From a virus (lineage: Duplodnaviria; Heunggongvirae; Uroviricota; Caudoviricetes), in the IMG/VR virus record IMGVR_UViG_2703718836_000012, positions 1-35,817 of that record: a stretch of 35,817 nucleotides of DNA; one strand, 5' to 3'. Shown piece after piece: positions 3,001-6,000 of this stretch. Made by a program: the position numbers. Position 1 is the first letter of the stretch. The number at the start of each line of letters is the position of its first letter.

Positions 3001-6000
3001 TTGGGTTGGTTTTCACACGTTCACTCATTCTCACCAGTTCGAGGTTATCATTCCCTTTGTCAATAATTCGCTGCCCCACTCCGAGGGAGCCAGCCGTTAA
3101 CGCAAGGCTTCCTAATACCCCACCACCGACGATAGGAGCATTCCCGCCCTTCTGAGCCTTTAGCTTAGTGGCTGCTGCGGCATACTGGGTACGCTGTGCC
3201 TGTGTCACTTTGGCTTGCTGTGCGGCTTCTCTGCGTAACAGGGTTACACGCTCACGAATAGATGCGTTCATACGGGCACTGGTCAGATTGCCTTTGGCAA
3301 ATTCCTCTGTTTGCTGACGTATGAAACGTAACGCTTCATATTGAGATTTAGGATCAAGTCCGTATTTACCTTTAATTCCTGACACTTGTAGCCCTGCATG
3401 GCGAAGTTTAAGCTCGGCTGTCTCTTGGTGCTTCTGTAGCTGCTGCTTCGCTTTCAGATTGGCCTTTTCATCCCTGGCTTTCTGCTTCTCTGCCGCACGT
3501 TGGGCTTTCATTTCCTTCGTATCACGAGGTTTATCATTAAAACGTGCATCATCGGCTTGTTGACGAGCTTTCTGTCTGCGCTGCTTCTGAGCCTGGAAGC
3601 GAATCTTGGGATCGGCTATTTTCTGGAAGTGCTTTTGAAGGTTATCCGCTGCGGCTTTAGCCAGAGCAATGCTCTGCTTATCCACCACGAATGTAACCGT
3701 ATTGCGGATCTGACTGACCGAAATATCAAGCATCGCCACCGCCTTTCTTACTCACCAGATAATTAAGTGCATCTGATACACTACGCCCACGATGTAATAA
3801 CTGACGTAGATGACCGTGATCTATTTCAAGCACACGACACACTCCCGCCAGATTTAATAACTCTTCTGCTGTTTCAGCATTTACGGCGAGGTGAAGCCCC
3901 GCGCTTTTTACAATCACTTGCATTTATCTTTCCTCTTATTCTGGAAATAAAAAAGGGCGGGAACACTGGGGAGATGTTCCCAACGTTCACACGCCCTATT
4001 CAAAAGCCTGATTATTGCCTGCGGGTCAGGCTCCCGCTTGCTCATTAAGCAGTGATGGTGATCTTCACTTGCATACCTAACGCATGGTTCACTGGTAATG
4101 CGCTGTTTTCGTGCATAACGTGGTAAGCATCGCCGCGCTCGCTCAGGTAGCCCCAAGAGTAGTATTCAGCAGGTGCAGCATCGATCAGCGCGAAGTTGCC
4201 AGAGGCAGCGCCGTAGATGTTCTGATAAGCATTTGTGCCTTTACTGAATACCGGAACCGCCACCATGTCAGCATCATCTGGCATCTGTGCAAGGATCAGC
4301 GGATCTGTCACTTTAACAATGTCGATAGGCGCACCAGGTAGGCTAAACGTACTAACACCAGGGAGAAGCTCGTGACGCTGGTAGAATAGGTTACGGTCGT
4401 CATATGGCGCTACATACTGGAACGCCTTAGACATACTGTCAGAGAAGCGAATCTGGCTAAATGCAGCAGGTTTAGCGAATACGATCACTCGTTCAATCTG
4501 TCCAGCCAATCCACCTGCGGCAGCCTGAACTTTGTCTAAGATGGCATCAAAATCCTGTGCCGCTGTCGCTGTGCTCACGCTGGCTGTCATTGGCACCACA
4601 CCGAACAGTTCAGCATAAGAGATCAGTAGGTCATCAGTTGCAGGCGTATAAACTTCACCTTTGAACAGAGCACGGGCCAGGTAGGATTCACGGGTACGAA
4701 GATAGGCAATCTTATGTTTCCCTGTGTACTCGGTGTACAGGTCGGTAACGGTTTGCTCGTAGTCCGTGCCTTGCACCCTTTTCCCTTGTACGTCTACTGG
4801 TTTGAAGGTGTCTTCCCTCGCAAACCAAGGGATCTCCACCAAATATTCTTTACCATTCTGACGCGCGGTAGTGTCGTGGCTTGATGAATAACGACTCTGC
4901 GGGGTGTTAAACAGGCTGTAGTTATCATCCAGAAGCTGTGTCACCACCACTTTCGGATTCTGAACACCTACCCCGTCGAAGAGGTCGAGAGCATTCATAA
5001 GATAGTTACGTTCCGGCAGAGCCTGGAAGATTGGCGCTAAATCGACCATCTCACGCCCAATTGCGATTTTACTCATTATTTATCTTCCTTGATTAAGAGG
5101 TGAAGAATGGACGGCATACGAACCCTTTGGATTCGAGCGTGGTGATAGCTGCGGCGTGATTAGCTGCGTGCAGGTTGTCGGCTTTCAGTGCTACGAAGCT
5201 GCCAACATTAGGCGCACGTAGGACATTCACGGTTTTACCGTCGCCAGCACTCACGAAATCACTTACCACCACAAAGGCATCATCGCCGGAGGTGTATAGA
5301 GCGCCATCAGCGCCGATAACATCGCCGCATTCAATATCTGCTGGCAGGTCGAAAACACGGCCTTCTACGACTGCAAAAGAATCAGTGGCGTAGCTCACTA
5401 CGTCAGTGAAACTCTTACGAATTGGGAAAAGTTCGGTTAGGTCTACAATCATTGTTGTTTGATTTCCTTGGATTTGATTGCGATCCGTTCCTGCATACTA
5501 AGTTGAGGTGTGTCCTCAGAAGGGAAATACTGGTCTACAGCTTTTTCTATTTCTTCAACGGTACATCCTGCCATTTCAGCCACTTTAGCTATTAACTCAG
5601 GATTAACTTGAATCACTTCGGATTTGTATTTTAGGATTCGGTCGCGATTGTTTATTAAGAACATTGTGTTGTTCCTTCGCGTTATAACTGCGTTTATCCT
5701 TCCATTAATAACGGAAGTGTTACATGCAGATTGTTAAAAAGGGGCGATTAAGCCCCTGGAGAATATGCCCTTGTTAGAAAGCATTCTGTTAAAATCATTT
5801 TCGTTTCGGAGGATTATGATGTTAAAGAAAGGTTTCTTGAAAAAATGAAGGGCGCAACTGTTACGAATAACAGAAGTAGGATCGCCCGTCATTGCTCCCA
5901 CTTCAAAACAGAAGCCCTTCTGTCATGGCGAGAAGTGGGAATGGAATTTCTTATCACCCTGGAATAGTAATAAGAGATTGCCAGCCTGAACGTAACTACC

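Follow-up and report, generated by a model that had tools for sequence, protein, structure and literature searches.

The capsid genes in the window analysed here, the whole 35,817 nucleotides of IMG/VR virus record IMGVR_UViG_2703718836_000012, make up the structural module of a 13.5-kb island that is intact, encodes an integrase and has thrW att repeats at its ends. Having its own capsid, decoration and tape measure protein (TMP) genes but no DNA-packaging machinery, the island most likely spreads by parasitising large virulent phages of the phi92/phAPEC8 type, and on the homologies described below we lean towards its being a satellite of these virulent myoviruses (Stephanstirmvirinae or unsampled relatives). 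It belongs to a conserved and apparently undescribed family of 12–14-kb islands: the literature searched, with most subscription journals outside its coverage, gave no description of satellites with capsid and tape-measure genes or of satellites of Stephanstirmvirinae or Phapecoctavirus.

The capsid mini-operon lies on the minus strand and has exactly the layout claimed in an earlier note on this DNA, a capsid gene with two small coupled genes upstream. Gene 1 (5449–5664; ORF scan) encodes a 71-aa protein of unknown function and is coupled by an ATGA stop/start overlap to the gene for a 119-aa protein (5093–5452); the gene for the 343-aa major capsid protein (MCP) follows (4045–5076), its ATG preceded by a 16-nt spacer with AAGGAAG (both signals by direct reading). 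Syntenic homologues of the 71-aa protein keep their position in sister islands at 40–100% identity (median dN/dS 0.27), and none of Pfam, PHROG, NCBIfam or PADLOC gave a match to it. The terminator ascribed to the capsid gene is present as a terminator-like hairpin with a T-run (TGGGAACATCTCCCCAGTGTTCCCG CCCTTTTTTA; 3950–3982, minus strand) between the capsid stop codon and the next gene; found by pattern scan and direct reading, it is a consensus match only, of a pattern that occurs at 11 sites in the region versus 5.5 ± 1.9 in shuffles. Upstream of the operon is a near-consensus sigma-70 promoter-like site (TTGACA-17-CATAAT with TG; 6290–6318, minus strand; 11/12 matches, likewise a pattern match only). 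This site gives no hint of helper-dependent control, which weighs against the satellite reading. No phage late-promoter motif was found to compare, as the structural genes of Stephanstirmvirinae have ordinary sigma-70-like promoters, and there is thus no discriminating motif to look for in the island. PGAP labels the genes of the module 'major capsid protein', 'TolA' and hypotheticals; NCBIfam gave no match for the capsid/TMP module, and in PADLOC no defence model fitted the structural genes, all matches being weak and at chance level.

The 343-aa product proved to be a capsid homologue. It matches Pfam PF03864 (Phage_cap_E) with an E-value of 1e-13 and 51.5 bits (cut-off 22.9), residues 10–340 aligning to profile positions 2–328 of 329, so that the description 'lambda-E-like' is correct at the level of the Pfam family; PHROG 29 ('major head protein') is a further match. 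MCPs of the island family form 52 clusters at 40–98% identity, all full length (about 342–353 aa), with a median dN/dS of 0.105. Searched against the PDB, the family profile matched gp124 of phi92 end-to-end (6e-18) and also the MCPs of Pakpunavirus P7-1, phiTE, Bas63 and Sf14, and hhalign gave 98–98.5% probability for the island MCP against Stephanstirmvirinae MCPs. Identity to the MCP of the candidate helpers is only 18–25%, and no close relative was found among sequenced phages. Judging by these profile comparisons, the island MCP is a remote, full-length homologue of the Stephanstirmvirinae MCP that belongs to a separate, deeply diverged lineage. The low identity and the lack of a close phage relative raise the question of compatibility with a helper's portal and scaffold, and we counted this against the satellite reading.

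The 119-aa protein, encoded directly upstream of the MCP in the same order as in Stephanstirmvirinae, models as a gpD/SHP-like head decoration protein. Sequence comparison with phage decoration proteins gave no significant match, and it was the fold comparison that settled this assignment. The top Foldseek/PDB matches of the AF2 model (pLDDT 86.8) were the decoration proteins of phiTE (9cul_e, E 3.8e-4), Bas63 and Sf14; those to YSD1, P21 SHP and lambda gpD ranked lower and were non-significant (E 0.19–2). The top named matches in BFVD were annotated 'head decoration protein'. Its median dN/dS is 0.145.

Beyond the capsid gene lie a small ORF and a tape-measure-like gene, as had been noticed earlier. 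The ORF encodes a conserved 65-aa protein (3726–3923, minus strand) and overlaps the ATG of the TMP gene (3733) by 8 nt; it follows the MCP in nearly all members of the family (median dN/dS 0.06). The AF2 model of this protein (pLDDT 86.9) comprises a beta-hairpin and three helices. A packaging-specificity factor or a TMP chaperone had been considered for its role, and Foldseek against the PDB returned nothing below E 2.7, which we counted against the satellite reading. The tape measure gene (1868–3733, minus strand), previously given as a 623-aa product, encodes 621 aa from the ATG at 3733. Its product falls into PHROG 16051, 'tail length tape measure protein' (E 4e-97), and is homologous end-to-end by BLASTP to the TMP of ESCO13 (E 2e-88), with which it has N-terminal MLDIS.. 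and C-terminal ..LSGQSSTGG motifs in common; the ESCO13 homologue lies in the place of a TMP gene, with the tail chaperone before it and the hub genes behind. A search with the TMP matched 143 phage records, and every match listed was a ~145–153-kb phage of the phAPEC8/phi92 type (Stephanstirmvirinae). Across the family loci the TMP measures 595–638 aa (median dN/dS 0.19), and the type of TMP changes independently of the type of MCP, which would be expected of tail parts that follow different helpers. In one member (L039) the TMP is absent and the 65-aa protein still follows the MCP, which makes the TMP non-essential to the family and was counted against the satellite reading. Sister islands also carry a Dit-like gene, 53–77% identical to the one that directly follows the TMP in Stephanstirmvirinae. 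The island in the window has no Dit-like gene and its TMP is only 31–40% identical to known phage TMPs, and its true helper may therefore be unsampled.

The boundaries and the remaining modules of the island are those of a mobile element. The att site is a 20-bp repeat of the thrW 3' end (ATGGTGCCGATAATAGGAGT; 13370–13389), seen as a direct repeat in a 99.9%-identical island of E. coli XYEH3934 (L001 5842–5861 and 19370–19389); the second copy lies 140–159 bp to the left of the window start, giving an att-bounded island of 13.53 kb that reaches thrW. At the att-distal end is a 404-aa tyrosine integrase with DUF6538, SAM-like and catalytic domains (1–1215, plus strand; Pfam, PHROG), whose position and orientation are kept in sister islands. 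Between integrase and TMP is a variable cargo slot (1251–1818, minus strand; ORF scan, PHROG) with a 92-aa PHROG 1090 protein and a small ORF, filled in sister islands by the Dit-like gene, by Kiwa KwaA/KwaB (a defence system, in one member) or by other genes; defence cargo is typical of satellites. The replication and capsid modules are separated by three small, conserved genes to which no function is assigned (about 112/161, 127 and 94 aa; 6334–7442, minus strand), with syntenic homologues in most loci, median dN/dS of 0.18–0.20 and no family match in Pfam or PHROGs. The replication/regulation module (7456–9463, minus strand; Pfam, PHROG) consists of a 494-aa SF2 (DEAD/ResIII) helicase and the small ORFs before it (54-aa Arc/RHH-like, 57 aa and 62 aa). 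A PDB sequence search with the helicase gave no match; other members have a 217–249-aa DUF6945/HTH_36 pair in its place. Being replaced there by unrelated small replication proteins, it is a replication module open to exchange rather than a packaging enzyme. Further on is a 193-aa short tyrosine recombinase with the catalytic domain only (10579–11160, plus strand; Pfam Phage_integrase 2–171 of 172). Its orthologues (185–241 aa) keep their position in many loci with a median dN/dS of 0.05, some being 95–98% identical where the MCP is only 54–59% identical, and it is thus a conserved family component, not debris. An att-proximal accessory region (11155–12834; ORF and domain scans) holds a 136-aa Zn-ribbon protein, a YecR lipoprotein, a 129-aa protein and a conserved 63-aa ORF with homologues near the att-proximal end of most sister islands.

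Searches of all island ORFs of at least 50 aa against Pfam and PHROGs found no portal, protease, terminase, tail tube, sheath or head-completion genes, in agreement with the earlier description of the element. Nor did the island yield a pac/cos site, a small terminase or a packaging-redirection factor, a point that we counted against the satellite reading. An Rfam scan (E <= 0.1) returned no RNA family and hence no P4-like CI RNA.

The module recurs with identical gene order at about 45 loci. Their hosts are Enterobacterales and represent 10 or more enterobacterial genera (Escherichia, Klebsiella, Enterobacter, Citrobacter, Cronobacter, Kluyvera, Buttiauxella, Scandinavium, Pantoea and others), and MCP identity goes down to 40%; among 5426 complete E. 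coli genomes, at least 339 (about 6%) carry a member. The shared order is a ~70-aa protein, a ~120-aa protein, MCP, a ~65-aa protein, TMP, Dit (present or absent) and integrase. Members combine an integrase, a replication module that can be exchanged, and either a short tyrosine recombinase or a resolvase with a fixed capsid cassette (the ~70-aa protein, gpD-like decoration protein, HK97-fold MCP and ~65-aa protein), usually followed by the TMP, with or without the Dit-like distal tail/hub protein. Selection on the core genes is purifying throughout (median dN/dS 0.05–0.27), and apart from MCP, TMP and integrase no conserved core gene product exceeds ~160 aa. In the sister loci looked up, the called genes with a Pfam annotation included neither a portal nor a terminase or protease gene, and none of the conserved core genes has the size needed to encode one. 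The att-delimited sizes fall between 12.0 and 14.1 kb (15 distinct members, 16 loci) while content varies (a helicase or a small Rep, a TMP or Kiwa, with or without Dit), the pattern expected under a capsid-size constraint. One member, L006, is circular by a 55-bp terminal overlap; at 13.57 kb, with ParA and without the large integrase, it indicates that the module also lives on an autonomous replicon. The other short contigs (L005, L039–L045) have no terminal overlap.

Several lines of evidence connect the family with Stephanstirmvirinae, which are virulent ~150-kb myoviruses (phi92, phAPEC8, ESCO13, 05F01). In both, the decoration gene precedes the MCP gene and the TMP is followed by the Dit-like gene; homology runs end-to-end for the island TMP, reaches 77% identity for the sister Dit-like gene and holds at profile level for the MCP. 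These phages differ in having about 150 kb and a full virion gene set, of which the island keeps four or five genes on an integrative replicon of 13 kb. At the DNA level, sister islands are 80% identical to these phages across the TMP start, and 46–81 nt at a unique intergenic site are common to L004-type islands and Justusliebigvirus and to L012-type islands and Phapecoctavirus. The SfII/SfV-like prophage that adjoins the island in the window was also considered as a helper and rejected, its TMP being unrelated and its head genes deleted.

In the mechanism that we propose, helper infection would lead to excision and replication of the island, whose MCP and decoration protein would then form a small shell of ~13 kb capacity on the helper's portal, scaffold/protease and terminase. 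The island TMP, with Dit in some members, would be built into the helper's tube, sheath and baseplate, yielding infectious satellite particles, probably with interference against the helper. Size uniformity, the circular member and DNA exchange with phages lend indirect support to induction, packaging and transfer by a helper. The suggestion in the earlier note that these genes are a retained minimal set parasitising a helper fits all of this evidence and now has a candidate helper group in Stephanstirmvirinae; the use of that helper is what we infer.

It is unlikely, in our view, that the helper is instead an unsampled, possibly temperate phage group, with the homology to Stephanstirmvirinae reflecting common ancestry of structural modules and not current exploitation. 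Such a helper would suit the lack of a close phage relative of the MCP, the wider clade of MCPs in the profile search that match no sequenced phage closely, and the diverged TMP of the window island, but the Dit-like gene of sister islands (71–77% identical to that of Stephanstirmvirinae) and DNA matches of 80–96%, some subtype-specific to two phage genera, indicate recent physical contact with Stephanstirmvirinae. Quite improbable, too, is a phage-interference (defence) island that is never packaged and whose MCP, decoration protein and TMP serve as dominant-negative decoys against helper assembly. The divergence of the structural homologues from those of the candidate target phages and the cargo slots, one with Kiwa, would be in keeping with it, as would interference being a known satellite property (PMC10945586). 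It leaves unexplained, however, the narrow size range, the integrase, att and replication modules, the circular ParA member and why a complete MCP and decoration pair and both TMP termini are kept under strong purifying selection. PADLOC models match none of the structural genes.

That the element is a deletion-riddled or recently degraded prophage remnant, which retained capsid and tape-measure genes by chance, was the other possibility raised in the earlier note. Most virion genes are indeed absent from the element and the neighbouring prophage itself lacks head genes, but this reading is already contradicted and we give it hardly any credence: the same gene set and order persist across genera at 40–60% protein identity with intact ORFs under purifying selection, the elements are att-bounded and uniform in size, and comparison with genomes, IMG/VR and GenBank phages yielded no fuller relatives. 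The marks of lineage-specific decay in a defective prophage (pseudogenes, relaxed selection, fuller relatives elsewhere) were not found. It is just as improbable that we are dealing with an autonomous minimal virus whose portal and packaging enzyme are hidden among unannotated genes. Conserved genes without assignable function (94, 127, ~112–161, 71 and 65 aa) do exist, but these are all small, the only large extra protein is the helicase that is replaced elsewhere, and tube, sheath and baseplate genes are absent although a TMP implies a long tail.

If the satellite reading is right, E. coli and Klebsiella would possess satellites directed against large virulent phages. Among the candidates for phage therapy are Phapecoctavirus and Justusliebigvirus (phi92-like) phages; resident islands could thus stand in the way of therapeutic phages, or be disseminated by them. 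As the family is common and has cargo and defence slots, it may also be an overlooked route of gene transfer and phage resistance.

Compared with known satellites, the island is mobile (att, integrase, replication module) with an incomplete virion set of only MCP, decoration protein and TMP. It has an integrase, as in Gram-negative PICIs, and no AlpA, primase, TerS or Ppi/Rpp family matches; an Rpp/Ppi-like function of its small unassigned proteins is possible. P4 (11.6 kb) acts on the P2 capsid protein through Sid and Psu, has an alpha primase-helicase, Delta and Epsilon, and has no capsid-shell or tail gene. The family resembles P4-like elements in size, tRNA-gene integration, a plasmid state (known for some P4-like members; compare L006) and defence cargo, whereas Pfam and PHROGs gave no Sid, Psu, Delta, Epsilon or alpha matches in the island, and replication is by the SF2 helicase or the DUF6945/HTH_36 pair. 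PLE takes the ICP1 coat protein, resizes the capsid by the external scaffold TcaP and has no MCP or TMP gene; the island differs in having both, and has no PHROG or Pfam link to PLE core genes (RepA, TcaP, etc.). The proposed likeness is in lifestyle, PLE of Vibrio cholerae being a small chromosomal island that exploits the large virulent myovirus ICP1 and ends up in small capsids (PMC10945586, PMC12772148), as the island would exploit a large virulent myovirus.

Like the island with its HK97-fold MCP (Phage_cap_E; PDB profile matches to phage MCPs), cf-PICIs are integrative elements of Enterobacteriaceae, about 10–15 kb in size, with their own HK97-fold capsid protein rather than a remodelled helper capsid. 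Their gene set for head and packaging is complete (small and large terminase, portal, protease, connectors), tail genes are absent and the helpers are temperate. The island, in contrast, is without portal, prohead protease, small and large terminase and connectors (ORFs of at least 50 aa, Pfam/PHROGs), it carries a full-length tail TMP, with a Dit-like gene also in sister islands, and the homologies of its structural genes lead to virulent ~150-kb myoviruses. In cf-PICIs such as EcCIEDL933, the capsid is their own and the rest of the virion comes from the helper (summarised in PMC12772148). We tentatively propose that the islands could represent a new satellite class, in which the island would supply only the shell (MCP and decoration protein) and the TMP, with or without the distal tail protein, while large virulent phages of the phi92/phAPEC8 type would provide portal, packaging motor and contractile tail. 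On this reading no earlier satellites of this kind would be known for virulent coliphages. They would then stand between capsid-remodelling and capsid-forming satellites, neither stealing the helper's coat as P4, PICIs and PLE do nor building a complete head of their own as cf-PICIs do, and single virion parts, a tail component included, would be replaceable.

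The capsid module at 4045-5664 described in the earlier note comprises three co-directional genes on the minus strand, encoding products of 71 aa (5449-5664), 119 aa (5093-5452) and 343 aa (4045-5076). As read from the sequence, the first two are joined by an ATGA overlap, and a 16-nt spacer with an AAGGAAG ribosome-binding site precedes the third. Pfam Phage_cap_E covers the 343-aa product in full (E 1e-13), and PHROG 29, 'major head protein', is matched as well; both bear out its proposed capsid homology (hereafter MCP, major capsid protein). A hairpin with a T-run (3982-3950) lies 3' of the MCP gene and is followed by a 65-aa ORF (3726-3923), whose final codons overlap the start codon (ATG at 3733) for a 621-aa protein. 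That protein hits PHROG 16051 ('tail length tape measure protein', E 4e-97), and the downstream gene noted as tape-measure-like is thus confirmed as such (TMP). RefSeq/PGAP labels the tape measure homologue (window 1868-3739) 'cell envelope integrity protein TolA', a misleading name presumably driven by the Lys/Glu/Ala/Gln-rich coiled-coil region. Among island ORFs of at least 50 aa, Pfam and PHROGs searches found no portal, protease, terminase, tube, sheath or connector, in agreement with the claimed absence of the first three.

The 119-aa protein has no sequence-family match. Its AF2 model (pLDDT 86.8) resembles the head decoration proteins of phiTE, Bas63 and Sf14 (E 3.8e-4 to 0.02) and 'head decoration protein' entries in BFVD, with weaker, non-significant matches to YSD1, P21 SHP and lambda gpD. 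These fold matches indicate that the cassette is a decoration-MCP pair, the 119-aa product being the predicted head decoration protein. The best solved relatives of the MCP profile are the MCPs of virulent myoviruses (Pakpunavirus P7-1, 9zbi; phi92 gp124, aligned end-to-end at E 6e-18; phiTE, Bas63 and Sf14). The TMP likewise aligns end-to-end with that of Phapecoctavirus ESCO13 (E 2e-88), with both ends (~30 N-terminal and ~12 C-terminal residues) included, and is shorter chiefly in the central coiled-coil part; in ESCO13 and 05F01 the homologue occupies the canonical TMP position.

An island of E. coli XYEH3934 is 99.9% identical to the left 13.4 kb of the window; it sits between paoD (beside a LysR-gene fragment) and thrW, and two copies of a 20-bp sequence from the thrW 3' end, ATGGTGCCGATAATAGGAGT, flank it in that genome. 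Relative to the window, one copy corresponds to 13370-13389 and the other lies 140-159 bp to the left of base 1, giving an island size of 13.53 kb. A 404-aa integrase gene (1-1215) occupies the att-distal end. Beside it, in the cargo slot (1251-1529, minus strand), a 92-aa protein hits PHROG 1090 (E 8e-22), a family of unknown function, and shows a weak match to a PADLOC Cas2 model (E 2.8e-4); it may be a small nuclease-like accessory protein. In the window, a second element comes after the thrW fragment: an SfII/SfV-like prophage that has gtrA/B/X genes, a Mu-type tail and an attP-like sequence. Window 13366-13500 resembles the attP of SfII, SfI, SfV and P22 and holds only the 3' part of thrW, and ARAGORN found no intact tRNA in the whole window, which together place island and prophage in tandem at thrW. 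In this prophage (27393-31264, minus strand), the tail sheath gene (27393-28889) comes almost immediately after the genes for the small (30761-31264) and large (29052-30764) terminase, and the C-terminal ~43 residues of the large terminase hit a different PHROG; with portal, protease, capsid and connector genes apparently deleted, the prophage looks head-defective.

Relatives of the window MCP form 52 clusters at 90% identity, 40-98% identical to it and all ~342-353 aa long, the named ones all from Enterobacterales. The ~45 fetched loci have a common architecture. Their replication module is exchangeable, being an SF2 helicase of ~490 aa in some and a DUF6945/HTH_36 pair (217-249 aa) in others. 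Then come three conserved small genes, the capsid cassette (with products of ~70 aa and ~120 aa, the MCP and a ~65-aa product) and a 595-638-aa TMP, which a distal tail (Dit-like) protein of 219-237 aa often follows. A cargo slot and reverse-oriented integrase complete one end, and the opposite end carries a short catalytic-domain-only tyrosine recombinase or a resolvase. The size between direct repeats is 12.0-14.1 kb in 15 distinct members (16 loci), and att sites correspond either to a tRNA 3' end (tRNA-Thr, tRNA-Leu or another tRNA) or to a LysR-family gene. Of 5426 complete E. coli genomes, at least 339 carry the family, always chromosomally and in 1-2 copies, with the window subtype in ~13-15 of them. 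Median dN/dS is low throughout (MCP 0.105, decoration protein 0.145, 65-aa ORF 0.06, TMP 0.19, integrase 0.10, short recombinase 0.05). The earlier note had left the module as either a decayed prophage remnant or a satellite-like minimal set; the shared architecture, the span of MCP identities and the low dN/dS lead us to reject the remnant, and comparative genomics supports the satellite-like reading as the probable one.

L006, a metagenomic locus (scaffold of 13,624 bp; MCP 42% identical), assembles as a 13.57-kb circle with a 55-bp terminal overlap that has a ParA-like gene where the large integrase would sit, together with a Dam/HTH_7 gene and the short recombinase, and is a plasmid-like form of the capsid and TMP element. 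Another sister locus (L039, 9566-11108) carries the Kiwa defence genes KwaB and KwaA in the TMP position and retains the capsid cassette along with the ~63-aa gene; the interval between TMP and integrase behaves as a hotspot for cargo and defence genes. The 193-aa recombinase of the window (10579-11160, plus strand; catalytic domain only) resembles a truncated integrase, yet its position is conserved across the family. It is 95-98% identical among islands whose MCPs are only 54-59% identical, implying recent exchange of that element end.

Among the matches listed, all phages matching island TMPs are ~150-kb phAPEC8/phi92-type viruses (Stephanstirmvirinae). The TMPs fall into at least five clusters (21-35% identity between clusters), which are shuffled without regard to MCP type. 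In sister islands the Dit-like protein shares 53-77% identity with the product of the phage gene directly 3' of the TMP. Across the TMP start, 129 nt match Justusliebigvirus alia at 80% identity, and island L038 carries a homologue of the phage gene located two positions after the MCP. All 30 of 30 island MCPs match the Stephanstirmvirinae MCP at full length with 23-25% identity (hhalign probability 98-98.5%), and no close relative was found among sequenced phages. An exhaustive MCP profile search returned only 353 clusters (50% identity) at E <= 1e-3. Additional full-length relatives (P0119-P0146; E 1e-30 to 1e-60) are not close to GenBank phage MCPs (the two tested reach at most 26% identity), and other bacteria may harbour related elements with orphan capsids.

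Two further links with these phages occur in sister islands and are absent from the window island. In L004 (4150-4310) and L012 (4158-4236), six ~10-bp iterons (ATAAATAnCn) precede a shared stretch of 46-81 nt. Its phage counterpart, at 83-96% identity, is a single-copy site within an AT-rich region that is poor in ORFs. The match is subtype-specific: 46 nt of L004-type islands are 96% identical to a unique intergenic site of alia (92.6 kb), and 81 nt of L012-type islands are 83% identical to the homologous site in a Phapecoctavirus (B15, 19.1 kb). This site may act as a shared origin, a pac site or a site of recombination. Several islands also share a ~70-aa ORF with Stephanstirmvirinae, 44-52% identical to a small phage ORF (B15 63782-63979; alia 131460-131621); it adjoins the short recombinase (L013 3993-4217, L017 1815-2036 and equivalents).

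By its gene content, the island cannot make a portal, packaging motor or tail tube, sheath and baseplate, and its shell, decoration protein and tape measure are kept under strong constraint on a mobile replicon with a tight size limit. As a probable satellite, it would borrow a helper's portal, scaffold and terminase to pack a small shell built from its own MCP and decoration protein, and would place its own TMP, with or without Dit, into helper tails. Carrying a TMP could fit the tail to another head or DNA end, aid DNA entry, allow escape from exclusion or poison helper tails. Overall, we consider it probable that the island is a satellite of some helper, and consider with moderate confidence that it is specifically a satellite of Stephanstirmvirinae-type phages.

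In the literature searched, whose coverage is incomplete, we found no description of such capsid and tape-measure satellites, and a December 2025 overview of satellite kinds contains none resembling the family. At 12-14 kb, the islands are similar in size to satellites packaged in small T=4-type heads (P4, 11.6 kb; PLE, ~18 kb; cf. PMC12772148). Unlike cf-PICIs, the island lacks portal, protease and terminase and has a tail gene, and it does not show the defining features of PICIs, P4-like satellites or PLEs either. As far as genomics can test, it fits the functional class of phage satellite.
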